Shown piece after piece: positions 46,064 to 59,362 of a stretch of 64,000 nt of DNA. The position numbers and the translations under genes were made by a program. The notes under the pieces are model-generated. The model did not search any database. It saw nothing but the letters and a program-made list of their open reading frames with translations, and was not told the DNA's origin. Source of the stretch: an uncultured Elusimicrobia bacterium (GTDB lineage Bacteria; Elusimicrobiota; Elusimicrobia; 2-01-FULL-59-12); assembly GCA_963702895.1 (NCBI GenBank), contig OY969767.1, positions 896,001-960,000 on the forward strand. The letters run 5' to 3'. Positions within the stretch are counted from its first letter, which is position 1. Every line of letters begins with the position of its first letter.

Positions 46064-46069
46064 TGGAGT

Positions 46070-46180
46070 TCGTCCTAGGTCCGAGGTCCGACGTCCCGAG
46101 ACCCTTCGGGTGTAGTGGCTGCCCGTACTGGCCGCCGAAGGCGACCTGTAAGGGCGTCGTACGTCGCACGTCGGACGGTT
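46070..46180. repeat. CGTCCGA/GGTCCGA heptamer inverted array between pilZ and mutL
   Basis: ggtccga ggtccga cgtcccg..gtcgtac gtcgcac gtcggac; same family as inserts in aroA and miaB. Confidence 0.7.
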
Positions 46181-46875: not shown

Positions 46876-48530
46876 CCCAATTTTTCACCGCTCGGTCGCC
46901 GCGGCGACCAGGTTTCTCGCCTGCTTCGGGTACCCTTGGCTTCCCTCGGAGGCGGTTCAGACTACCGTCTGATCAATTGTCGGCCTTTTGCGGCAGTTTT
47001 CGCCGCTCCGACCCTCTGTTCGGTTCTTTCCCTCCGTCGATGCCTTCGGTGTCGCCGTCCCGTCAATCAACCGGTAGACGCGATCACCACAGACAGCCCC
47101 AACACGCCATAGCGCGCCTCTTCAAAAACCCGCCGGAACGGGTAGTTTTCCGGAATCTTTAACCACAGATAGCGCGACTTCCGGCACACTGTCCCGGCCA
47201 AGCGGATCAGCCGGTGCCGCAGCGTCTGGATCGTGAAGCTCTGCCAGGCTTTCGGCAGAACCAAATGCTTGAAGGCTGCCGTGACCACCGACGCCAACAT
47301 CGCGATCTGGAAATAGGCGGCATTGGCCATAAAATCCCGGCACGGCAGCTTGGATAATCCAAACCCACCCTCGCTCTTCATCTCCCGGTTCACGTTCTCC
47401 GACCCATCCTGCCGGTTACGGTGAAATTGCAGAACCAATCCCGGTTCCCATGTGAACCGCGTCGCCACCGCATGGTATTCAAAGTGCTCCTTATCGAAAA
47501 GCTCGCCTTGCGGCTCCTGCTGCCAGCGCACCACGACCAACCGAAATGCGGCGATATCCTTGTCCGCCTCCCCAAAAGCATGCACCGTCTCGGCAATCTC
47601 AGATCCCTTATGGGGATAGACCGGCGAGTTGTACTTCTTCCAGGCCTTCTCCGGAATCGACCGAATCGCTTCCAAAACGGCATCATCCTTGCGCGCCGTG
47701 ATGGTGAAGTCCACCCCGGCCCGATCCAATTCCCGAACCACCTTCGCCTGATACCCCGCGCTGTCTGAGCGCGCCCTCATCCGCAAACCGGAAAACTGCC
47801 GCAAGACCCGCCGCAACAAACTCGCCAGGTTCGCCATCGGGCTCGCATTGCCTGCCCGAAACGCCCCGGCCAGCGGCATCTTCAGCTCCGCGCAACTGAC
47901 CATCACCGGACAATACCCTTCCAGTCCATCGTAATTCATCAAGACGCCTTCCTTCTGTGACTCCAAAAAATAAGCGTCGATATCGATCGTCACAATAGAC
48001 AGCTCGCAGGCCCGGATCACCTTCGCCGCCGTCTTGAGCTGGACCCATCCCAACCCATGAATCGTCTTGCGCCCAAAACGCCGAAGAAATTCGCCCAACG
48101 TGTTCGCTGCCGGAAAATCCCCCAGCAAGCGCCGTATCCCCTCGTCCCCTTGCAGCAGCCCGATGTCTTCGAGCGCTTCCCCGCCCGCCTGGATCGATCC
48201 CATCAACCCCAAAATACTCTCGGCAGGATCGTATCCCCGCGCCCGCTCCTTCACCGGCAGCGCATTGAGCCGCTCCTCCAACCCCAGGCTCCGTGCCGTC
48301 CCCAACAACAACGGCAGCCCTGCAAAACTCGTCACCGCTTGATCCGTCGTCGAGACCTTGTATACGTCCAAGTTCTTCAGTAACATAAAAGCACCTCGCA
48401 GTTCAGATTCCACTCTGGCTTGCGAGGTATTTTATTGCCTCTGCGCGTCGCTGTAAAATCACGCGCTGCACCCTTTTTCAAAGCCTCCTGTGTTGACCCC
48501 TCATTTTTCACCCAATAAGTGAAACCCTTC
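46876..48530 (-). mobile_element. IS1380-family insertion sequence, ends approximate
   Basis: Transposase plus non-coding flanks; candidate end cccaatttttcacc at 46876; matching opposite IR not resolved. Confidence 0.6.
47067..48386 (-). CDS. IS1380-family DDE transposase
   Basis: TSFAGL, IDID, RSDSAG, FHRNRQ..EN..REMK, F.ANAA, LRHRLIRLAG; start-proximal hairpin at 48391-48430. Confidence 0.88.
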   Translation of the reverse strand: MLLKNLDVYKVSTTDQAVTSFAGLPLLLGTARSLGLEERLNALPVKERARGYDPAESILGLMGSIQAGGEALEDIGLLQGDEGIRRLLGDFPAANTLGEFLRRFGRKTIHGLGWVQLKTAAKVIRACELSIVTIDIDAYFLESQKEGVLMNYDGLEGYCPVMVSCAELKMPLAGAFRAGNASPMANLASLLRRVLRQFSGLRMRARSDSAGYQAKVVRELDRAGVDFTITARKDDAVLEAIRSIPEKAWKKYNSPVYPHKGSEIAETVHAFGEADKDIAAFRLVVVRWQQEPQGELFDKEHFEYHAVATRFTWEPGLVLQFHRNRQDGSENVNREMKSEGGFGLSKLPCRDFMANAAYFQIAMLASVVTAAFKHLVLPKAWQSFTIQTLRHRLIRLAGTVCRKSRYLWLKIPENYPFRRVFEEARYGVLGLSVVIASTG

Positions 48531-48623: not shown

Positions 48624-51203
48624 TTATTTGGGAGCGTCTGGGAAAAGCAAAGGTTGTCCTGGCTCCTGGGAGGAAGCGGTCCTGTCACGCGTTTTTTCAA
48701 ATTCGCTGAGGAGTGCTTCCGCCCGCCCCAGGACCTCTTTGGGCACACCGGCGAGCTTCGCGACATGGATGCCAAACGAGCGGTCGCCTGGACCTGGCTC
48801 CACTTTATGGAGAAAAACGACCTGGTCCCCCCACTCCCGGGCCGTGACGTGGGCGTTCGCCACGCCGGGCAAGCTCTGCGCCAGTTGGGTGATCTCGAAG
48901 TAATGTGTGGCAAACAAGACTTTTGGACCTTGCCGGCGCAAATATTCAAGACACGACCAGGCGATCGAGATCCCGTCGTAGGTCGAGGTACCTCTTCCCA
49001 CCTCGTCAAGAATCACGAGGCTCTGTGGAGTGGCGTGGTTCAGGATTCTGGCGGTCTCGACCATTTCAACCATGAACGTGGATTCTCCTTCGGAAAGCCT
49101 GTCCGAGGCGCCGATGCGGGTGAAGAGCTGGTCCAGAACCCCTACGCGCGCTTGGGCGGCAGGAACATAGGAACCCATCTGGGCCAAGATCGCGATGAGG
49201 GCCGTCTGGCGAAGGTAAGTCGATTTGCCGGACATATTGGGTCCCGTCAAAATGATGATCGCCTGGTCTGTCCCGTTTAAGAGGACGTCGTTGGGCACCA
49301 TGCTGCCGGCAGGAAGAACGTCTTCCAAAATCGGGTGGCGTCCTTCGCGGATAGAAAGAACATCAGACTCATCCACGAGGGGTCTGATGAAGCGTTTGCG
49401 ATCGGCCACTTCAGCGAGGCTCGCGAAGGTATCCAGCTCCGCGATGGCTTGAGCGATGCGCTGGATCAGCTCGGATTTCTTTAAGATTTCCTCGCGCAGG
49501 GCCGCGAGCAACACCTGCTCTATCCGTAAAGCCCGCTCCTCGGCGCCCAGGATCCGCGTTTCGAAATCCTTAAGCTCGGGCGTGATGTAGCGCTCGCCGT
49601 TTGCTGTGGTTTGCTTGCGGATGTAATGCAGGGGGACTTTGGAGAGATGGGTCTTGGTCACTTCGATGTAGTAGCCAAAGATATTGTTAAAGCCGATTTT
49701 GAGTGAGGAGATACCGGTCTGTTCGCGTTCCTGAGACTCCAGCTCAAGGAGTCGGTTTTTCCCGCTATGGATCCAGGAGCGGACTTCGTCCAGCTCTGGA
49801 TCATAGCCGCTTTTGATCACCCCCCCTTCTTTGAGCGTCGCGGGAGGGGCTTCCACGAGCGCCAAATCAAGCAAATGGGCCAATCCCTCTTCCTCAGGGA
49901 ATTGTTGGATGAACTCAAGGAGCGGCGCGGGTAAGGGTCTCCCGAGCTGCGTGGATTGTTCCAGGAGCATGGCCAGCTGCGCTTTCATCTTCGGGAGGCG
50001 CCGGAGCCCCTGGCCGAGGGCGGCATAATCCCGGGGCCCCGCCGAACCAGCGGCCAGGCGCGTCAGGATCCGCTCAAGGTCCGGCCAGCCTTGCAGAAGC
50101 GCACGCAAGGAACGCCTTCCTTCCTTGGCTTCGTAGAAAAACTCAACTTTGTCCTGGCGATCGATGATGCGAGAAACTTCTCTGAGCGGACTGACGAGCC
50201 AACGCCTGAGGAGTCTTGCCCCCAGCGGCGTAAGGGTCTGATCAATGATTTCTAAAAGGCTTCTGGCTCTTGTGGAATAGCTATTTCCTTTAGGTAATAA
50301 GTCAAGATGGTCGATGGTGCTTGCGTCCATCTGCAGATGCTTGTGGACTTCATAGGTTTTGAGCGGTCTTAAGGGCGTGGGCCTGCCGCACTGGGTGTTT
50401 TCAAGGTAGCGCGTGACAGCTCCCGCGGCGGAGATCGCCTGGGGCTTCTTTTCAAGGCCAAACCCACGTAGGGAAGAGACCTCCAAGAGCTTCTTCAGAT
50501 GATCTTCGGCCAGCGCGGCGGAAAAGTCGTTGGGGGCGAGCTCCGCGATGCTAATCCCCTGGCTGGCCAGACGCTCTTTCCAGAAAGAACTCTGGGAAGA
50601 TGCTGGGAGGACCACTTCGGAGGGCCTGAGGCGCATCACCTCATCCCAGGCCCGCGACCGGGCAGCTGGGCCCGAAAGCTCTGTCGCTATAAATTCTCCT
50701 GTCGAGCACTCGATGGCGGCCAGGCCTATGGCCTGTTCGCTTTCGGAGAGGGCAAGGAGGTAATTACACCGTTTGGAAGGAAGGAGCGTATCTTCCTGCA
50801 GCGTTCCAGCGGTCATGACGCGCACCACGCTTCGCTTCACAAGGCCCTTCGTCGTGCCAGGATCCTCCATTTGATCGGCAATGGCCACGCGAAGGCCCGC
50901 TTTCAAAAGTTTAGCGATATAAGGCTCGACCGAATGGGCCGGTACGCCGCACATGGGCTGGCCCTGGCGCTGGGTGAGCACGACCTCAAGTATCGGGGCC
51001 GCGCGGCGCGCGTCCTCGTCAAAGAGTTCGTAGAAGTCGCCCAGTCGGAACAGCAGGATGTCCTGAGGGTGGCGATTTTTCAGTTCCAGATATTGCGTCA
51101 TGAGAGGTGTGGTTGCCTTGAAGGGATTCGGGGTGAGGGGTGAGGGGACAGAAGTTTCCTTTCCCCTTTCCTCTTTCCCCTGGACCCGGCGGTTATTTTC
51201 CAT
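48624..51203 (-). CDS. mutS: DNA mismatch repair protein MutS, lacking its C-terminal tail
   Basis: FRLGDFYELF, TGPNMSGKSTYLRQ, ESTFMVEM, DEVGRGTST, FATHY. Confidence 0.96.
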   Translation of the reverse strand: MENNRRVQGKEERGKETSVPSPLTPNPFKATTPLMTQYLELKNRHPQDILLFRLGDFYELFDEDARRAAPILEVVLTQRQGQPMCGVPAHSVEPYIAKLLKAGLRVAIADQMEDPGTTKGLVKRSVVRVMTAGTLQEDTLLPSKRCNYLLALSESEQAIGLAAIECSTGEFIATELSGPAARSRAWDEVMRLRPSEVVLPASSQSSFWKERLASQGISIAELAPNDFSAALAEDHLKKLLEVSSLRGFGLEKKPQAISAAGAVTRYLENTQCGRPTPLRPLKTYEVHKHLQMDASTIDHLDLLPKGNSYSTRARSLLEIIDQTLTPLGARLLRRWLVSPLREVSRIIDRQDKVEFFYEAKEGRRSLRALLQGWPDLERILTRLAAGSAGPRDYAALGQGLRRLPKMKAQLAMLLEQSTQLGRPLPAPLLEFIQQFPEEEGLAHLLDLALVEAPPATLKEGGVIKSGYDPELDEVRSWIHSGKNRLLELESQEREQTGISSLKIGFNNIFGYYIEVTKTHLSKVPLHYIRKQTTANGERYITPELKDFETRILGAEERALRIEQVLLAALREEILKKSELIQRIAQAIAELDTFASLAEVADRKRFIRPLVDESDVLSIREGRHPILEDVLPAGSMVPNDVLLNGTDQAIIILTGPNMSGKSTYLRQTALIAILAQMGSYVPAAQARVGVLDQLFTRIGASDRLSEGESTFMVEMVETARILNHATPQSLVILDEVGRGTSTYDGISIAWSCLEYLRRQGPKVLFATHYFEITQLAQSLPGVANAHVTAREWGDQVVFLHKVEPGPGDRSFGIHVAKLAGVPKEVLGRAEALLSEFEKTRDRTASSQEPGQPLLFPDAPK

Positions 51204-51816
51204 GGGCCATCCCAAAAAGATATTTCCAGCCCTGCAGCATTTTCAGAATCCCAAAGGTCCGCTCGACGCGCTTCACGAATTTGCGGGTTTCGGGGTAAGG
51301 AATGTCACGGATTTCAAGGACGGGCTTGCCTTGGCGCCACTGGCTCGTCACGCCGGGCCCGGCGTTATAGGCGGCCAGGACCGCTACGTCATCGTCAGGA
51401 AAGAGGAATTGGAGCTTCGTCAGATAATAGACACCCAGATGGAGATTCGTGTCGGGATCCTTCAAGTCATCATCGTTTTCAATGACAACACCGATCTCGG
51501 GGGCGATCTCACGCGCCGTCGAGGGCAAGATCTGCATCAGTCCCACCGCGCCACGGGACGATCGCGCTCCGGGGAGAAAGCCCGACTCCACCTTGATGAT
51601 CGCCATCACCCAAAGGGGATCGCATTTGAAGACGCCGGCATATTTGTTGATCAAAGGTTTGTTCAAGACGGGGCGAAACCAGATCCAAGCGGTGCCCGAG
51701 TAGATCAAGGCGAGGAGCAGAAGAACCACGGCGAGCAGCAACCCGCGGAATAAGCGGCGCTTGGTGCGCTCGACCGGCGGCATCCTGCGCAGCTCGCGCG
51801 CGTACACGCCTACCAT
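51193..51816 (-). CDS. Lytic transglycosylase (SLT domain)
   Basis: IKVES, GAVGLMQI, LAAYNAG, ETRKFV. Confidence 0.92.
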   Translation of the reverse strand: MVGVYARELRRMPPVERTKRRLFRGLLLAVVLLLLALIYSGTAWIWFRPVLNKPLINKYAGVFKCDPLWVMAIIKVESGFLPGARSSRGAVGLMQILPSTAREIAPEIGVVIENDDDLKDPDTNLHLGVYYLTKLQFLFPDDDVAVLAAYNAGPGVTSQWRQGKPVLEIRDIPYPETRKFVKRVERTFGILKMLQGWKYLFGMAHGK

Positions 51817-53117
51817 CGCGCGGCCTCTTTCTTGGGGATGGCCTTGTCCGCGTTCAAGGAAAGATTGAGGGACAGAACTTTTTGGAGCCGTGATTCTTTG
51901 ATGTCTTGGCTGACATCATCCGGTTCTTGAGCGGAAGTCGTGCCGGGCCTTGGCGAATATTGAAAGGCGAAAAGGCCATTAAACCGAACTTCTTCAATCA
52001 GGGAGAGGCTCTCGTCAAAATCTTCATCCGATTCGCCGGGATAACCGACAATGATGTCGGTTGTCAGGCTGATCCCAGGCAAGGCCTTTCTCAAACGTCT
52101 TACGACATCCAGATAATCCTCACGGGAGTAAAGTCGCTTCATCCGGGAAAGAACTGCGCTCGAGCCGGACTGAACGGGCAAGTGGACATGGCGGGCGACT
52201 TTCTCGCACGATTGGATGGCTTCCACCACGCGCTCACGCATGTGGACCGGATGAGGGCTCATGAAACGGATGAGTTCGACGCCTGGGAGGGCGTTGACGG
52301 CGCGCAGCAAGTCCGCGAAATCAACGACCGTATCGGGGTAACGGGGTAACGGGGTAACGGTGTCACGGCTTAACTGAGATGTTGTGACTTCGTTACTCCG
52401 ATACTCCGGTACTCCGGTACTCCGATACTCCGGTACTCCGATACTCCGGTACTCCGATACTCCGGTACGGTAGTAATAAGAATTGACGGTCTGTCCCAAC
52501 AGCATCACTTCGCGGTATCCTTCGGCAACCTTCTTCTGAATTTCGCTCAGGATCTCGGCGACGGGGCGGTACTTCTCCCGACCGCGTACCTGGGGCACGA
52601 TGCAGTAGGAGCAAGCGAGGTTACAGCCGCGCATGATGGTGATGTAGGCCGTTGACTCATTTCCAAAAAGGCCGTCCGACGTGCGACGTCCGACGCCAAT
52701 CTCCGGACCTCGGACCTCGGACCTCGGACGAAAAAGCGCAGCTTCATTTCCCCAATTCCACCTGTCCTTCAACACTTGCGCGATCGCTTCTGGAAAGTTT
52801 TCGATTTGGGTAGCGGGCGAGACAAGATCTACAAAAGGGTATTTCTTTTTGAGGGAGTCCCCCCAGAGGCTTGCCGCGCAGCCCGCGACAATAAGGAGCC
52901 GGTCCGGATTTTCTCTTTTCCAGTCGCGGAGTCGCCCGAGGTTGGAGATCGCCTTGTGTTCGGCATGTTCGCGCACGGTGCAGGTGTTCATGATCAGGAC
53001 ATCGGCGTCATCGGGTTCCAACGTCCGGACGAGCCCGCGCTCCCGGAGCGGCTGGGCCATCTCCTCCGAATCCGCGACGTTCATCTGACAACCGTAGGTG
53101 ATGAGGTGGTATTTCAT
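51810..53117 (-). CDS. miaB: tRNA-i6A37 methylthiotransferase (radical SAM); no TRAM domain evident; two in-frame repeat inserts
   Basis: TYGCQMNVADSE, NTCTVRE.AE, GCNLACSYCIVP, HLPVQSGS, TDIIVGYPGE, YSPRPGT. Confidence 0.95.
   Translation of the reverse strand: MKYHLITYGCQMNVADSEEMAQPLRERGLVRTLEPDDADVLIMNTCTVREHAEHKAISNLGRLRDWKRENPDRLLIVAGCAASLWGDSLKKKYPFVDLVSPATQIENFPEAIAQVLKDRWNWGNEAALFRPRSEVRGPEIGVGRRTSDGLFGNESTAYITIMRGCNLACSYCIVPQVRGREKYRPVAEILSEIQKKVAEGYREVMLLGQTVNSYYYRTGVSEYRSIGVPEYRSTGVPEYRSNEVTTSQLSRDTVTPLPRYPDTVVDFADLLRAVNALPGVELIRFMSPHPVHMRERVVEAIQSCEKVARHVHLPVQSGSSAVLSRMKRLYSREDYLDVVRRLRKALPGISLTTDIIVGYPGESDEDFDESLSLIEEVRFNGLFAFQYSPRPGTTSAQEPDDVSQDIKESRLQKVLSLNLSLNADKAIPKKEAARW
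52328..52468. repeat. Octamer inverted-repeat array in frame within miaB
   Basis: ggggtaac x3, then 9 units of g(a/g/t)tactcc. Confidence 0.9.
52675..52730. repeat. Heptamer inverted-repeat array in frame within miaB
   Basis: gtccgac gtgcgac gtccgac..cggacct x3 cggacg. Confidence 0.85.
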
Positions 53118-53576
53118 CTACATCCTGAATATGGGAACAAGCATTATCCTGAATAGCGAAAATATAAGCACCGATAGTGAAAGAAAAGAATATACCAGCC
53201 AACCCGCTGATGTGCGGTAAACGAACTTCAATACAATCCACTTGGCGGCCCCAGTCACAAGAGCTTCCAGCACAAGCCAGAATAACCAATGGGGTCCCGT
53301 TGGGTAAACATAGCTTGAAAGTTCAGCAGACCAATATTTCTCTGTTGGGGTTGGGATGACGAAGCTCGAACCCGCAACGGTTAGAGCCGTCATGATGAGA
53401 AGAGCGCTGGCTTGTTGCTGACGTGAAAGGTTGGAAGACCGCAATGAAATCAAAAAATCGATTGTTGCGGAAACGACCAAACCCGGAAGCAACGCCCCTA
53501 GATTTTGAAAAGGTTGCTTTCGAAAAATAGCGACCTCTAAACGGCTCCATACTATTGGTTCACCCAAATAGCTCAT
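53118..53576 (-). CDS. Cassette gene: multi-TM hypothetical protein
   Basis: Hydrophobic ORF whose TAG directly abuts the miaB ATG; start uncertain. Confidence 0.6.
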   Translation of the reverse strand: MSYLGEPIVWSRLEVAIFRKQPFQNLGALLPGLVVSATIDFLISLRSSNLSRQQQASALLIMTALTVAGSSFVIPTPTEKYWSAELSSYVYPTGPHWLFWLVLEALVTGAAKWIVLKFVYRTSAGWLVYSFLSLSVLIFSLFRIMLVPIFRM

Positions 53577-53980
53577 ATCATGCAGCCACCTTAAATTGGG
53601 CAAAATGCACTTTCTGCTCCCACCGTAAGAGCTTGCACAACGGGGGAAAGTCTTTGAGTGGCGGCTTCATCCGACAATACTGCTTTGCATCCAATTTGTT
53701 CGGTACCATCGCCAAGCGCTAGCGTCCCCATCCTTTGAGCTTAGAGGAAGGAGCAGTCCTCGGCGGTGCGCGAGATGGGTGACAGGCACCAATCTAACGC
53801 ATTTCATAGTATTTTCCTCGTTCTTAGATCTCGGTCCCATTCTTCGCTGGACGGTTGTTACGCGATGATCACCAAATAATCTTCTTCCGGGCTGCACACA
53901 ACGTGGATTGTCCTCGCGGCAGAGGTAATTCCCATCCTATGGCAGCTACGCATAAGGCAACCTTTATGCGAATCGAATGG

Positions 53981-54181
53981 TCAGGCGGCTTTTCGAGGAT
54001 GGAGAGCCTCATCCAGACTGACATAGCCAGCCTGGATCGCAGAACAAACGCGCATAAGATGAAGCTCATACATCATGTCATCAGTAGGGAATTCCTCGCG
54101 AACATGCTTCGCCAATAGCTGTAGCTTCTCTGACGGAACCTTGGCCTCTCGGGCAACTGCTTCATAGTCGAAATAACGCAT
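53981..54181 (-). CDS. Putative antitoxin partner of the PIN protein
   Basis: 66 aa, AAGGAG RBS, directly downstream of the PIN gene; EEFPTDDMMYELH. Confidence 0.65.
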   Translation of the reverse strand: MRYFDYEAVAREAKVPSEKLQLLAKHVREEFPTDDMMYELHLMRVCSAIQAGYVSLDEALHPRKAA

Positions 54182-54193
54182 GATATCGCTCCT

Positions 54194-54649
54194 TTAAATT
54201 TCTGGCGGAGCTACGATCTCAATGGTCGGCAACCCACGTGCTGTGTTGAGTTGGTTGACTAACGCCCGCCGGCGCCGGTTGACCAGATGCTTAAAATTCC
54301 ATGACAGAAGGATGTCTTGCCGCGACAAAACTGCTGCCGAAACGTGAAGCGCGTCGTCAGCCATCGTTGGCAAGAAAATGCCGCCATCAATATAATGCTT
54401 TGCCAATTCTTTCATTTCGGCGTCGATCTTCAACAGATTAAATCCTTCCAGTAATTTCAGAAGCTTAACGCGATGATCCGGATCGGGAGTTCGGGCCAGT
54501 TCTTGACGCGCCAACTCCGATGTCGAGAACTCATACTGATGAAGCCGCTTCCAAAATTCTGTTGTATCGGCCTTCCGCTCCGGCGCGCGGTCATCGAGAT
54601 AGGCGCTGAAAACGGAAGTATCCAAATAAACTCGGAGCTTTATAGACAT
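54194..54649 (-). CDS. PIN-domain (VapC-like) nuclease
   Basis: VYLDTSV, DALH, LLSWNFKHLVN. Confidence 0.88.
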   Translation of the reverse strand: MSIKLRVYLDTSVFSAYLDDRAPERKADTTEFWKRLHQYEFSTSELARQELARTPDPDHRVKLLKLLEGFNLLKIDAEMKELAKHYIDGGIFLPTMADDALHVSAAVLSRQDILLSWNFKHLVNRRRRALVNQLNTARGLPTIEIVAPPEI

Positions 54650-54832
54650 CGTATCACCGCGATAATTTTAGCACCTTGAAGCTCACTTGCTTAAAATCTT
54701 TGAGCGCTTGAAAAGCTGCTGGATAGGCTAAAAGGCCTGTTCGTCGCCTACTGAAAGCGTCTGGGCTACGTAGAGCACCCTCATCAAGGCGGCTTCCTCC
54801 ACGCTGACGGGTTGATATCCAATTTGTCGCAT

Positions 54833-54866
54833 ATGGCCAGCCGTAGGTAATGAGATGATATTTCAT
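54833..54866 (-). repeat. miaB head copy R7
   Basis: ATG AAA TAT CAT CTC ATT ACC TAC GGC TGG CCA. Confidence 0.92.
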
Positions 54867-55171
54867 GGATGTCCGCTAAGTAAGAAACGTTGTGCCAACT
54901 TGCCCAAACCATAAAGGAGGAAACAATAAAAGGTCGCAACAAGGATAACTCCCGGCCAAGTGGGGAAGGACCAATAAGCGCTCATGCCAAGGCCCAGGGG
55001 ACGTAGCACTGGTCGTGCAGGCAGATATATTGCGTAGGCGAGTGATAGCAGATTAGTCGCCAGAACCGGTAGGTGCTCTCCCCATAGCGACAATACCGCC
55101 AGGCTGGAGATATTCCACACCAAGAATGCGCCGGGAAGAAGAAGGGCCAGATGCCGCTTAAGGTATGTCAC
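54863..55171 (-). CDS. Cassette gene: 102-aa membrane protein, copy A
   Basis: GGGAGG RBS, hydrophobic, near-identical to 57685-57993. Confidence 0.8.
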   Translation of the reverse strand: MTYLKRHLALLLPGAFLVWNISSLAVLSLWGEHLPVLATNLLSLAYAIYLPARPVLRPLGLGMSAYWSFPTWPGVILVATFYCFLLYGLGKLAQRFLLSGHP

Positions 55172-55278
55172 ATTCCTCCCCTATCGCATGCTCGGCTGCC
55201 CATGCGAGCGTCCGCGCAATACCTTCCAGTCTATCTGCCGCCAAAATCCGCTTGGCAGAACAGTGAATCCAATCCATT

Positions 55279-55311
55279 CGGCCAGCCATAGGCGATCAAA
55301 AAATAGTTCAT
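55279..55311 (-). repeat. Degenerate miaB head copy R6
   Basis: ATG AAC TAT TTT TTG ATC GCC TAT GGC TGG CCG (MNYFLIAYGWP). Confidence 0.75.
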
Positions 55312-55463
55312 TTTTAGGGTTGTTTTGAGATGCCGGATTCATTAGAGCCAAACCCATCGATGAAAACTTCAGTGGGTGGTCAGAACCGTACGTAACCACG
55401 CCGGAGATCATATCGTGAATTTGGAGGCCATGGGCCTCTCAGAAAGAACAGGCCTCAGTCACT

Positions 55464-55745
55464 TTAAGCGGCCCGGTGGTGCGAGCGGTGGTTGATGGCG
55501 CGGGCCACCAGCGGATAGCGTTCGGGATGCGTCAGCGATTCCAAGGCCAGATCGATATCAAGGTCCGGCCAATAGAGGTGACTCCCATGGAGCAGGCTCA
55601 CATGGTGAATTTGGTTTATGGTGGCGTTTCCGAACCACGGGAACAGCCGATAAGGCAAAAAGTATTCTTGTCCTTTCACCAGCAGCCATACAGCCTGCTT
55701 GTTGACACTCAAAATCTCAACGGCTGAAATGCTCTTTCCATGCAT
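55464..55745 (-). CDS. DUF2442-like protein (putative TA component)
   Basis: LPY..FPWF..AT, HLYWPDLDIDL..ESL..PERYPL. Confidence 0.8.
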   Translation of the reverse strand: MHGKSISAVEILSVNKQAVWLLVKGQEYFLPYRLFPWFGNATINQIHHVSLLHGSHLYWPDLDIDLALESLTHPERYPLVARAINHRSHHRAA

Positions 55746-55956
55746 GGATAATCTCCACTTTCCGAGATTCAATGATACGGCGTAACTCCAGGAGTCGTCG
55801 CGACGTGAAACCACTATGGGTCGCAAGGGACACAATGGGTTCAAGCCAGAATTTCGCTTCTCCTTCTGGCGAGACCACATGAACATGAATGCGTGATTCT
55901 TCGCGTGAAAAGAAGAAAAAGCGGTAATTCTTATGACGAAATATCGTTGGACTCAC
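55717..55956 (-). CDS. DUF4160-like protein (putative TA component)
   Basis: YRFFFFSREESRIHVHV..GEAKFWL..AW.EHF. Confidence 0.85.
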   Translation of the reverse strand: MSPTIFRHKNYRFFFFSREESRIHVHVVSPEGEAKFWLEPIVSLATHSGFTSRRLLELRRIIESRKVEIIHAWKEHFSR

Positions 55957-56003
55957 GGGTTATGACTAAAATTATACCCTTTCTCCTCTTGCTTGTGGTA
56001 TCC

Positions 56004-56196
56004 CGCGCAAACGCCCCAGGTTGGAGAGGGCCTTGTGCTCGGCATGCTCGCGCACGGTGCAGGTGTTCATGAGGATGACGTCCGCTTGTCCGACGTCCGA
56101 CGTCTGAAGGAACCCGCGATCCTGGAGCGGCTGGGCCATCTCCTCCGAATCCGCGACGTTCATCTGGCATCCATATGTAATCAGGTGGTATTTCAT
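56004..56196 (-). pseudogene. Long miaB head copy R5 (first ~64 codons of a divergent miaB allele)
   Basis: MKYHLITYGCQMNVADSEEMAQPL..NTCTVREHAEHKALSNLGRLR, then unrelated sequence. Confidence 0.92.
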
Positions 56197-56744
56197 TTGA
56201 GCTGTAGACTGTTAAGAATCTCTAGGTAAATATTCTTGAACAGTGGTTGTGAGAGTGGATAGATGATTTCGATAACGTCAGCTTTTTTATAAGCCTGAAT
56301 GTAGTAGTGTGCGTTACGCCCGATCTCAGAAACCTCGCAACGGATGGCAGGACGTTTGCCAACGGTAACCTGTTCTACCTGCAAGGGTGGAGTTGTGGCG
56401 TTGTGATAAAAATCTTTTGCCTCAAACCACTTATGTATGGCGAGCTTCTGCGGATTTTGATTAACACCTAAATTTATAGTGAAGTTGGATTCGTTATCTA
56501 AGCTTTTGTCATTTTCTTCCGAAAACTCTTTCACATTGCTTAGAGTAACGCGGTATAAGTCTGTAAACGTTTTTTCTCGCACATGCCATTCCGATGGATA
56601 TCGGAGCTGAATTCCTGCCGTTTCCAATTTTAAGTTTGACCATGGCGATGGATCAGACATAACGGGCTGTACGCTGCACAGTGTCAAAAAGCTGGTAAAC
56701 GCAGCGGTTGCTAATATGTACACGACATTTCTCAATCTTTGCAT
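56193..56744 (-). CDS. Cassette gene: exported PsbP-like protein
   Basis: Signal-like N-terminus, LRYPSEW and ILNSLQLK pattern; stop overlaps head R5. Confidence 0.6.
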   Translation of the reverse strand: MQRLRNVVYILATAAFTSFLTLCSVQPVMSDPSPWSNLKLETAGIQLRYPSEWHVREKTFTDLYRVTLSNVKEFSEENDKSLDNESNFTINLGVNQNPQKLAIHKWFEAKDFYHNATTPPLQVEQVTVGKRPAIRCEVSEIGRNAHYYIQAYKKADVIEIIYPLSQPLFKNIYLEILNSLQLK

Positions 56745-56784
56745 GGCTTCAGCGCACCTCAATTGATATCCAATTTGTTTTATA

Positions 56785-56817
56785 TGGCCAGCCGTAGGTG
56801 ATCAGGTAATATTTCAT
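56785..56817 (-). repeat. miaB head copy R4
   Basis: ATG AAA TAT TAC CTG ATC ACC TAC GGC TGG CCA. Confidence 0.9.
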
Positions 56818-57383
56818 TCGATAACCTGAGCTTCTTTTTGAAGTCGCAACCATTCGGCTTCGATCGCCAACTCTTTGGCCCAAAGGTTGATGTAAGTTAA
56901 ATCAAGTTTGTTGAATTGCACTTCATAAACACGAAGCGCATCGATGAATTGTTTTTCGCTGCCACCGGATTGTTGTGCCCATCGCAGCTTCATTAGGATC
57001 GTATCTTCAGCCCGAGTCACCTGCATCTTCAAGCCGAAGAAATCTTCAGTGTATCGCCGCTGAAATCGGGACTGATCAAAGGCATCAGAAGTCAGGGGCC
57101 AGAAGTCGACCTTGTCCCCACCATTGACATCGATGAGGTTCACCATTTGACCGGATTTCAAAGCGTCGCGGAGGCCATCCGCGTCTAGATAATAGTGAGG
57201 GGACGGGAAGGCGGCGAGAAGCCGTGGGATGGAGGCCGCTTGGATTGCGATGACCACATCGATATCATGCGTGGCTCGCGGTTCTCCTTGCAGGCTGGAA
57301 ACCACCGATCCCGTGATCATGTAATCGATTTGCGCGGATTCGAGTGTTTGAACGACTTTGCTTAGTAATTCCTGTTGTGACAT
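56814..57383 (-). CDS. Nucleotidyltransferase-like putative toxin
   Basis: YMITGS..GEPRATHDIDVV, EDTILMKL. Confidence 0.8.
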   Translation of the reverse strand: MSQQELLSKVVQTLESAQIDYMITGSVVSSLQGEPRATHDIDVVIAIQAASIPRLLAAFPSPHYYLDADGLRDALKSGQMVNLIDVNGGDKVDFWPLTSDAFDQSRFQRRYTEDFFGLKMQVTRAEDTILMKLRWAQQSGGSEKQFIDALRVYEVQFNKLDLTYINLWAKELAIEAEWLRLQKEAQVIE

Positions 57384-57565
57384 TTATCGAGCCGGTCGCG
57401 GACAATTTCTTGTAGTTTTTCTCCTGAGATCCCGGCGAAGCGTTTGCGCAGTCCATGAATAAAGAGCTGTTTGGAAAATTCAGACAGTTCAAACGCCTTT
57501 TGCAGCCGCTGAGCAGGCGACAACGCGCGCAACATCCGCAGATAAACGGGAGAGTTCTTTTTCAT
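57362..57565 (-). CDS. Small putative antitoxin
   Basis: 67 aa, LRALSPAQRL..AFELS; overlaps the toxin start. Confidence 0.7.
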   Translation of the reverse strand: MKKNSPVYLRMLRALSPAQRLQKAFELSEFSKQLFIHGLRKRFAGISGEKLQEIVRDRLDKCHNRNY

Positions 57566-57655
57566 GTGGGATGCGACTATTGTACTCAGATTATGCGGGC
57601 ACCTGAACGGCTCCGATTGCGTGGCACTGATTGTTCAGTAGGAACCCTGAACGTA

Positions 57656-57688
57656 TGGCCAGCCGTAAGTGATGAGGTGGTACTTCAT
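57656..57688 (-). repeat. miaB head copy R3
   Basis: ATG AAG TAC CAC CTC ATC ACT TAC GGC TGG CCA. Confidence 0.92.
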
Positions 57689-57993
57689 GGGTGTCCGTCA
57701 AAAAAGTAACGCTGTGCCAACTTGCCCAAACCATAAAGGAGGAAACAATAAAAGGTCGCAACAAGGATTACGCCCGGCCAAGTGGGGAAGGACCAATAAG
57801 CGCTCATGACAAGGCCCAGGGGACGTAGCAGTGGTCGTGCAGGCAGATAGATTGCGTAGGCGAGTGATAGCAGATTAGTCGCCAGAACCGGTAGGTGTTC
57901 TCCCCATAGCGACAATACCGCCAGGCTGGAGATATTCCACACCAAGAATGCGCCGGGAAGAAGAAGGGCCAGATGCCGCTTAAGGTATGTCAC
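57685..57993 (-). CDS. Cassette gene: 102-aa membrane protein, copy B
   Basis: Near-identical to 54863-55171. Confidence 0.8.
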   Translation of the reverse strand: MTYLKRHLALLLPGAFLVWNISSLAVLSLWGEHLPVLATNLLSLAYAIYLPARPLLRPLGLVMSAYWSFPTWPGVILVATFYCFLLYGLGKLAQRYFFDGHP

Positions 57994-58100
57994 ATTCCTC
58001 CCCTATCGCATGCTCGGTTGTCCATGCGAGCGTCCGCGCAATACCTTCCAGTCTATCTGCCGCCAAAATCTGCTTGGCAGGATAGTGAATCCAATCCATT

Positions 58101-58193
58101 CGGCCAGCCGTGCCACTTCCTGTTTTGAGAATAGGCGGCACCGTTCGGGCACAAACGCATGCCCTCGCGGAAGGTGATGAGGTGGAATTTCAC
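58101..58193 (-). repeat. miaB head copy R2, split by a ~60-nt insert
   Basis: GTG AAA TTC CAC CTC ATC ACC T[insert]AC GGC TGG CCG. Confidence 0.78.
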
Positions 58194-59023
58194 GTGGCGC
58201 CTCTCTTCTTGGCGACGACAACGAGAGAGCCTCCCCACGGAAGCGACCGGCCTGAGAAAATCAATCTCTCGTCGGCCCGCATCACGAAATCTCCCATGGC
58301 ATCCAACCACGGCGGGAGATGCAATTCGCTGTCATCCATTCCGCTCCGTTTTTTCATAAACCGATTCTTGACTCTTGAAAGATACATGGCAGGAAAGAGT
58401 GAAAACACAAAGGAGCTGATGAAAGAGACCTCGAGCCCTGCTTGAGACACCTTTTGCACCAGTTCTTTGCGAGAGTACCTGCGTTTATGCATTGCAACAA
58501 CGTCAGTTTGACTCCAGAGGGATGGGTGTTGAGGGACTGTCAAGAACAGTAGTCCGTTGACTTTCAGAGCAGCATGGATCTGTTTAAGGACGATGACATC
58601 ATTCTCGATATGTTCAAGAACATCAAATACCCCAATTCCATCGAAGGCTTCCACGTAAGGTAAGCGCGTTGCATCCAGCTGAACCAGTTCCACACCATCG
58701 AGCCTCTTGGCAGCCCATTTTAGACCAGCGAGGTTCAATTCTGCCCCGGTCAAATGAAGATTCTTAAATTTCGACAGCCCGTTCAGAACAAATCCTGTTC
58801 CGCATCCAATCTCGAGAAACTTCGCTGTGCGATTTCCAAAGTGCTGGCATATGAGGTGCTCAAGGATACGTTGCCTGCTACGGAACCAAAAACTTCCCGC
58901 CTCCGACCTGTAGAGCGCTGGGTAGCTTTCAGGAGGAAAATCAGAATTTCCGGAACCCAGTTCGGGAGCGTAACATTTGATGTTATCGATAACTACGTAT
59001 GAAGGTTCAGTCCCTTCGCTCAT
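58190..59023 (-). CDS. Cassette gene: class I SAM-dependent methyltransferase
   Basis: FWFRSR, LEIGCGTG, FDVLEHI, LTVP, HKRRYS. Confidence 0.88.
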   Translation of the reverse strand: MSEGTEPSYVVIDNIKCYAPELGSGNSDFPPESYPALYRSEAGSFWFRSRQRILEHLICQHFGNRTAKFLEIGCGTGFVLNGLSKFKNLHLTGAELNLAGLKWAAKRLDGVELVQLDATRLPYVEAFDGIGVFDVLEHIENDVIVLKQIHAALKVNGLLFLTVPQHPSLWSQTDVVAMHKRRYSRKELVQKVSQAGLEVSFISSFVFSLFPAMYLSRVKNRFMKKRSGMDDSELHLPPWLDAMGDFVMRADERLIFSGRSLPWGGSLVVVAKKRGAT

Positions 59024-59080
59024 GAATAGGACCCTGGGTGTTCTGCATTGCTTTGGCGAGCCGTGACGCCACCCGCGAAA

Positions 59081-59215
59081 TTAGATACGTCCGACGCCAT
59101 AGCACCGTTGCAATATCCAGTGGACAGCGAATTCTGGCCAAAAAATGGCGGCAATGCCAATCGATGAGAAGATTGCGATGACCGACATGGGGATCATAAG
59201 GCCGCGTTCAAACAT
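59081..59215 (-). CDS. 44-aa single-TM peptide coupled (TAATG) to the head R1 ORF
   Basis: MFERGLMIPMSVIAIFSSIGIAAIFWPEFAVHWILQRCYGVGRI, read manually. Confidence 0.35.
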   Translation of the reverse strand: MFERGLMIPMSVIAIFSSIGIAAIFWPEFAVHWILQRCYGVGRI

Positions 59216-59316
59216 TAGCGAAAAACCTTTCTGTGCCCATCGGGAGCGTCTGGGCCGCCTTCAGGAACCTTGCTTCTGGGTACTCCTCGGCGAAAAGATG
59301 CTGAATCAAACCCATT

Positions 59317-59349
59317 CGACCAGACATAGGTGATCAAGTGGTATTTCAC
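59317..59349 (-). repeat. miaB head copy R1 (promoter-proximal)
   Basis: GTG AAA TAC CAC TTG ATC ACC TAT GTC TGG TCG. Confidence 0.88.
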
Positions 59350-59356
59350 GTCGGAG

Positions 59357-59362
59357 ATTATA
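59357..59362 (-). promoter_or_regulatory. -10 box TATAAT 7 nt upstream of head R1 (probable leaderless miaB promoter)
   Basis: agcag TATAAT ctccgac GTGAAATAC; no SD sequence before the GTG. Confidence 0.6.

Follow-up and report, generated by a model that had tools for sequence, protein, structure and literature searches.

Integrons and integrase-less attC clusters hold small co-oriented cassettes, rich in toxin-antitoxin pairs and in small membrane or exported proteins, and their enzyme may act in trans. These traits, the possible enzyme in trans included, are shared by an array of cassettes stacked at the start of miaB in an uncultured Elusimicrobia bacterium (assembly GCA_963702895.1, contig OY969767.1, positions 896,001 to 960,000; this stretch of 64,000 nucleotides is the window, to which all positions refer). 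The staphylococcal cassette chromosome (SCC/SCCmec), inserted at rlmH, is described as having a large serine recombinase whose target lies inside a conserved coding gene. Its degenerate inverted half-sites surround a central dinucleotide, and its units are stacked in tandem with internal attachment (att) sites between them, some att-flanked units being devoid of a recombinase (PMC13739063). Likewise, islands at dusA are described as replacing the 5' end of their target gene (PMC4482086), and the serine-recombinase phage JC1 as doing so at rimO, a MiaB-family paralogue, with integrase genes of related prophages overlapping rimO (PMC9144972). UPF0004 is listed among the target genes of large serine recombinases (6/1069; Durrant et al., PMC10083194).

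The miaB array resembles SCC in all the traits mentioned, with a putative large serine recombinase, and an element at miaB in a relative (G007; G stands for genomes and L for loci) likewise combines a replication protein with two serine recombinases. Unlike in SCC, the target is codon 9, at the 5' end of miaB and not at a 3' end as in rlmH, the core is GG and not GA, a new start codon and N-terminus have to come with every unit, and the units are of 0.4-1.7 kb, with one or two genes, co-oriented with miaB and stacked in up to 8 sites. The G007 recombinase is neither CcrAB nor CcrC, with 126 (CcrB, its best NCBIfam match), 98 and 81 bits against cut-offs of 900, 900 and 700. The array works like the SCC composite islands but, by target and by enzyme, is not SCC. 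As in JC1 and the dusA islands, the element would supply a new 5' end and start codon, with the old 5' end left at the outer boundary. In the available text those are single autonomous prophages or islands (the word "tandem" has 0 occurrences in that of the dusA-island paper, PMC4482086), whereas the miaB array stacks many recombinase-less cassettes, so that replacement starts can be compared within one chromosome. Unlike integrons, it has no IntI-type gene beside it (none of the 4 PF00589 matches in the genome is near; by the contexts listed, two look XerC/XerD-like and two seem to lie in phage- or island-like regions), its sites are derived from miaB and centred on GG, the recombinase is of the serine type, and new cassettes would enter at the promoter-distal end. 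The attC cores, which we take to be GTTRRRY/RYYYAAC, were not seen by eye in the array sites. The array is not an integron. Replacement starts and stacking are already known, but the literature searched, from which subscription papers are largely missing and which included 8 supplementary files of PMC10083194, yielded no account of single-gene arrays without a recombinase at miaB.

The array contains eight copies of miaB codons 1-8/9 (the heads, R1 to R8) on the minus strand at 53088-59349. We consider it likely that the heads are cassette-borne left halves of att sites for a large serine recombinase that targets miaB, and that their differences are mostly silent because each had to encode a working MiaB start while beside miaB. 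This reading is based on the joining of the eight heads at one GG (with decayed cores in R1 and R2) to either a common non-miaB arm or miaB body, on relatives with empty, single-cassette and multi-cassette sites, on a recombinase gene whose end overlaps the miaB start, and on common cargo.

Silent differences among the heads

A preliminary description of the window had quoted the codons of six heads, and these strings are exact:

R1, head start 59349, minus strand: GTG AAA TAC CAC TTG ATC ACC TAT GTC
R3, head start 57688, minus strand: ATG AAG TAC CAC CTC ATC ACT TAC GGC
R4, head start 56817, minus strand: ATG AAA TAT TAC CTG ATC ACC TAC GGC (MKYYLITYG)
R5, head start 56196, minus strand: ATG AAA TAC CAC CTG ATT ACA TAT GGA
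R7, head start 54866, minus strand: ATG AAA TAT CAT CTC ATT ACC TAC GGC
R8, head start 53117, minus strand, the resident miaB start: ATG AAA TAC CAC CTC ATC ACC TAC GGT

The two heads left out there, R2 (58193, VKFHLITF-R) and R6 (55311, MNYFLIAY-G), are the most divergent. That third-position changes dominate, as had been claimed, is borne out by the count. Compared with R8 over codons 1-8, the six quoted heads have 14 synonymous and 2 non-synonymous differences (3/0/13 at codon positions 1/2/3), one of the latter coming from path averaging for two Leu codons, CTC/TTG. Against an expected synonymous fraction of 0.19-0.26, the binomial p is 9e-9 to 5e-7. All eight heads together give 19:9 (positions 7/3/18; p 3e-8 to 5e-6). 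These comparisons with R8 are not mutually independent; when only distinct substitutions among the six quoted heads are considered, 8/11 fall at position 3. R8 is the consensus of the heads over 24 nt. A scan of the host genome (G000, 2.72 Mb in a single contig) with the 27-nt resident start gave 7 matches of at least 21/27, all inside the array, and the best elsewhere was 19/27; R6 was picked up by other searches. The synonymous bias is by itself an expected consequence of 5'-end replacement, and is the trace that one would predict from a cassette array in which a serine recombinase renews the start of miaB.

Organization of the array

Similarity to miaB stops at the GG of Gly9, which has decayed to GT in R1 (Gly to Val) and to CG in R2. 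Beyond it, R1, R3, R4, R6 and R7 run on into a common non-miaB right arm (CTGGCC, then in most cases TTGAT or TGGAT ca. 15-19 nt out), R5 and R8 run on into miaB body, and R2 has neither continuation. From the outermost site to the resident gene (aa, amino acids), the features are:

59303..59362, minus strand: R1, outermost attL-like site, with TATAAT (59357-59362), GTG head, GT core and right arm
58190..59023, minus strand: cargo, class I S-adenosylmethionine (SAM) methyltransferase, 277 aa; stop overlaps the R2 GTG
58168..58193, minus strand: R2 head (VKFHLITF), core decayed to CG
58086..58109, minus strand: R2', 60 bp beyond the R2 core, with a non-miaB left arm in front of GG and right arm
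57685..57993, minus strand: cargo, 102-aa membrane-like protein (twin A); stop overlaps the R3 ATG
57642..57688, minus strand: R3 site, head, GG and right arm
56814..57565, minus strand: cargo, Rv0078B-like protein of 67 aa (label from a weak match, below the cut-off) and nucleotidyltransferase-like protein of 189 aa, probable toxin-antitoxin pair; stop overlaps the R4 ATG
56771..56817, minus strand: R4 site, head (MKYYLITYG), GG and right arm
56193..56762, minus strand: cargo, 189-aa protein with hydrophobic N-terminus, no family match; stop overlaps the R5 ATG
56004..56196, minus strand: R5, head, GG and 165 nt of diverged miaB body, then truncated
55464..55956, minus strand: cargo, DUF4160 and DUF2442 pair, presumably toxin-antitoxin
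55265..55311, minus strand: R6 site, degenerate head (MNYFLIAYG), GG and right arm
54863..55171, minus strand: cargo, 102-aa membrane-like protein (twin B); stop overlaps the R7 ATG
54820..54866, minus strand: R7 site, head, GG and cassette right arm
53981..54649, minus strand: cargo, PIN-domain protein (151 aa) and 66-aa partner, probable toxin-antitoxin pair
53689..53713, minus strand: degenerate right arm with no head, 70% to the R7 right arm, probably a decayed internal site
53118..53603, minus strand: cargo, 161-aa membrane-like protein, no Pfam match; stop directly abuts the miaB ATG
53070..53117, minus strand: R8 site, head (53094-53117), GG core (53092-53093) and miaB body, attR/attB-like
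51810..53117, minus strand: miaB, intact, 435 aa (NCBIfam TIGR01574, 385.5 bits, cut-off 355.3)

The segments between sites (0.4-1.7 kb) carry one or two genes each, all on the miaB strand: a methyltransferase, a 102-aa protein found twice, three probable toxin-antitoxin pairs and two proteins with no family match. Their GC content is 50%, versus 56-58% for miaB and mutS. The R8 site contains an inverted repeat, TCATC and GATGA placed 6 nt on either side of GG. Five cargo stops overlap the start codon of the following head (ATGA/GTGA) and a sixth abuts it. Having five of six in the overlap frame has a p of 0.02 at one in three, the TGA being built into the head, and the overlap is at most suggestive of translational coupling. 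The promoter scan gave 7 sites versus 7.8 expected, none of them at R1, where the evidence for a promoter is the TAYAAT conserved before heads; the TATAAT-head layout of R1 matches the TAYAAT-head at the empty sites of G001, G003, G004 and G006.

Occupied and empty sites in relatives

Twenty regions around miaB were compared. In the four family members just named, TAYAAT and head are followed by miaB with nothing between; head pairs 468-1530 bp apart are found in G002 (same genus as the host), G005, G010 and G011; G007 has a 9.8-kb element at miaB; and the remaining eleven, from more distant families, have one start or none. A metagenome scan added 21 loci, some overlapping, with arrays of 8 sites in L085 and L093. 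Tandem units split by internal att sites, some with no recombinase, are present in the window, L085, L089 and L093. Most outside loci were retrieved by a codon-degenerate head pattern. As a control we collected sites by the right arm only: 22 of 24 have a miaB-like left arm, with mismatches of 26/16/60 by codon position, although the control is only partly independent, most loci having come from the head search. The other two right arms are joined to non-miaB left arms; as a speculation, occasional insertion at a pseudo-site followed by capture of promoter and head would fit them. A position logo built from the codon-degenerate pattern is circular and was not used, and neither was a short-pattern scan of the phylum (27/401 genomes) as a count, for the reversed-pattern control also matches.

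Six of the 8 heads of L085 carry a near-identical 45-nt promoter region. On these cassette tails, and at L094 2481, the copy of the miaB promoter region starts just before a -35-like hexamer. Judging from these layouts, a promoter copy on the cassette tail is a candidate alternative to translational coupling. Two arrays (56004-56196 with 55311 in the window; 8715-9470 in L085) share an order of head with short miaB body, probable toxin-antitoxin pair, and head with cassette arm; such units would fit a circle with an attB-type site inserted into an internal junction. L090 has head-type sites on the minus strand (172 and 1152) in front of genes other than miaB, presumably queA/tgt/yajC-like, a possible secondary site. 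Contigs of one DNA sequencing run (share 0.09) covered 12/30 bins at low depth, with no joints, and are uninformative on excision.

The associated recombinase and the symmetry of the sites

Besides a gene for a replication protein, the G007 element contains two serine recombinase genes, one small and one large. The large enzyme, of 537 aa, has resolvase, recombinase and zinc-ribbon domains (PF00239, PF07508 and PF13408), and its gene overlaps the start of miaB by its final codons. G002 has a 50%-identical enzyme at this position; between it and miaB sits a 655-bp cassette with no enzyme. Homologues with E of at most 1e-30 were found in 16/401 genomes of the phylum, and besides G007 the recombinase end overlaps the miaB start in 12/16 loci (L100-L115). 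Of the four exceptions, L100 has its tail head fused to a non-miaB arm, L103 stops early, and L105 and L114 are incomplete. A profile search of the genome contigs with the recombinase alignment recovered the G002 contig and one weak match. L080 connects enzyme and cargo: the recombinase gene is present there (product 51-57% identical), and the first cargo of this locus matches the PIN pair of the window at 88% and 89% identity. Recombinase-tail heads in both orientations around miaB elements (L116/L117 in G237, L120 in G141) suggest invertible segments.

Among 9 centres tested on 14 miaB-type sites, which are homologous and not independent, the best dyad symmetry is at GG, with positions 8, 9 and 11 pairing in 14/14; empty and filled alleles differ at GG. 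This symmetry matches the expectation for serine recombinase sites, for which a central dinucleotide is described (PMC13739063, PMC10083194).

Protein-level selection or recognition of the DNA

The heads being half of a recombination site, part of the conservation at codon positions 1 and 2 may reflect recognition by the recombinase and not selection on the protein. Taken to the extreme, the enzyme would read miaB positions that are invariant across hosts, producing a pseudo-synonymous pattern with no selection on the peptide. The left arm is indeed an att half-site, its best-kept positions (-11, -9 and -8) show dyad symmetry around GG, and recombinase-tail heads keep the last four codons while earlier ones change. 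However, 6/7 window heads downstream of R1 retain the start codon and Lys2 (R6 has Asn2), both absent from recombinase tails, which favours protein-level selection or descent from native starts. The start codon (-24) is kept in 35/41 heads with no promoter and in 26/27 with one, counts for which retrieval is partly circular, and the cargo stops appear coupled to the head start. We therefore regard recognition alone as an improbable explanation; it probably contributes near the core, also holding the inner codons, but not at the outer ones.

Origin of the heads

The preliminary description had proposed that heads came with cassettes from other lineages or served in turn. Arrival with cassettes and serial use fit the att-site architecture seen in relatives, while the specific donors are not traceable. 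The mean difference among six window heads is 4.5/24 nt, compared to 3.6 among the promoter-adjacent starts of 8 genomes of different genera. Matching the 24-nt heads to relatives gave nearest neighbours at 0-5 differences scattered over many loci, so the comparison is powerless and the heads are not assignable to donors. They look like a sample of family-wide miaB starts with no named source. The twin 445-bp cassettes have 11 differences in the last 47 nt versus 12/398 in the body, which is 97% identical (p 3e-6); this boundary was chosen after looking, and with the head only the values are 5/24 versus 18/421 (p 0.005). Tail and body have different histories, by exchange of the tail or conversion of the body.

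R5 preserves more of its allele. The fragment is 83% identical to the resident, with synonymous and non-synonymous divergences (dS and dN) of 0.50 and 0.12 over 64 codons, and a dN/dS of 0.40 in the body and 0.24 with the head, indicating purifying selection. Among 15 rows it is sister to the resident allele (97/93) and not to any sampled relative; its source, as far as this grouping tells, is either a relative closer than any sampled genome or an earlier resident. It could be argued that the heads are native miaB alleles from other lineages that can be identified, and that homologous or illegitimate recombination, e.g., the merging of two strains' arrays at R5, introduced them. The 165 nt of R5 are a genuinely diverged allele (dS 0.36, dN 0.145, position-3 excess p 0.02), one cassette occurs twice, once on either side of R5, and the divergence of the heads equals that between genera. 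Yet seven of the eight heads lose their resemblance to miaB at or just before GG, and R5 groups with the resident, so that such an import may explain R5 alone, not the array, for which we find it very unlikely. Neutral local duplication of the resident start, or an assembly artefact, both already disfavoured in the preliminary description, is hardly credible despite the match of R8 to the consensus and some identical head pairs in relatives, given the synonymous bias (p<1e-5 over all eight), the fixed junction and the same architecture in many independent assemblies, which argues against an artefact.

A proposed cycle and its difficulties

If the heads are cassette-borne half-sites, a circle with head, GG and right arm would recombine with miaB at the codon-9 GG. 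This would strand the old head upstream, on the right arm of the cassette, and MiaB would now begin with the incoming head, expressed either through translational coupling to the final cargo gene or from a cassette-carried promoter. The rebuilt site would take the next cassette, so each cassette head would pass through at least one period of selection as the start of MiaB, and another after downstream excision, as loss of the miaB-proximal cassettes would return an older head to service. The enzyme would be supplied in trans by a visiting element, because the host genome has none.

Several points weigh against this scheme. No recombination was observed, the cycle being inferred from sequence, and tblastn, profile and family searches found no cognate recombinase in G000. 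Instead of resembling the recombinase tails (..HIITY/F G), the cassette heads are of the native type (MKYHLITYG), and their acquisition by cassettes is left unexplained by a simple attP x attB cycle. Selection relaxes afterwards: the GG is gone from R1 and R2, several replacements have accumulated in R2 and R6, and a stop interrupts one G002 head (L069). G005 and G011 each have a pair of identical heads, so a local origin also occurs. Finally, the codon-position counts of the outside loci are partly circular owing to the codon-degenerate retrieval.

The sole full large serine recombinase of G000 is ca. 20% identical, lies ca. 575 kb away and ends at a tRNA-like sequence; a second PF07508 match (206 kb) has no PF00239 match. 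The full enzyme (G000:C1:372976-374601), unrelated, adjoining the tRNA-like sequence and near a short tyrosine recombinase gene, belongs to a separate island.

Genes downstream of the array

51193-51816, minus strand: slt, overlapped by miaB and overlapping mutS
48624-51215, minus strand: mutS, overlapping slt

The name mutS is the one we presume from its sequence. The three genes overlap end to start on one strand (48624-53117), which places the array upstream of a probable operon that includes mutS. A DDE transposase (PF13701) lies just downstream of mutS, at 47067-48413. Within miaB there are in-frame short-repeat expansions at 52379-52482 and 52672-52732 (an 8-nt unit in ca. 9 copies; GGTCCGA- and CGTCCGA-type), with related repeats at 46069-46178 and 56087-56109, and over the repeat stretches the miaB protein query matches other places in the genome.

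Implications

The eight versions of the site, side by side, illustrate how a mobile element can occupy a conserved gene without harming it, by rebuilding the start of that gene and often coupling it to the element's own last gene. Tentatively, the array might be the serine-recombinase counterpart of an integron. In that case, free, enzyme-less cassettes of one or two genes would circulate in a family of Elusimicrobiota and stack at miaB, with exchangeable tails (promoter or coupled stop, plus MiaB N-terminus) turning over faster than the cargo and the last cassette setting the expression of miaB-slt-mutS. The recombinase comes with ca. 68 natural site variants for mapping its specificity. The array lies just upstream of mutS and, if cassettes moved in trans, it would be a gene-capture platform outside the integron family.

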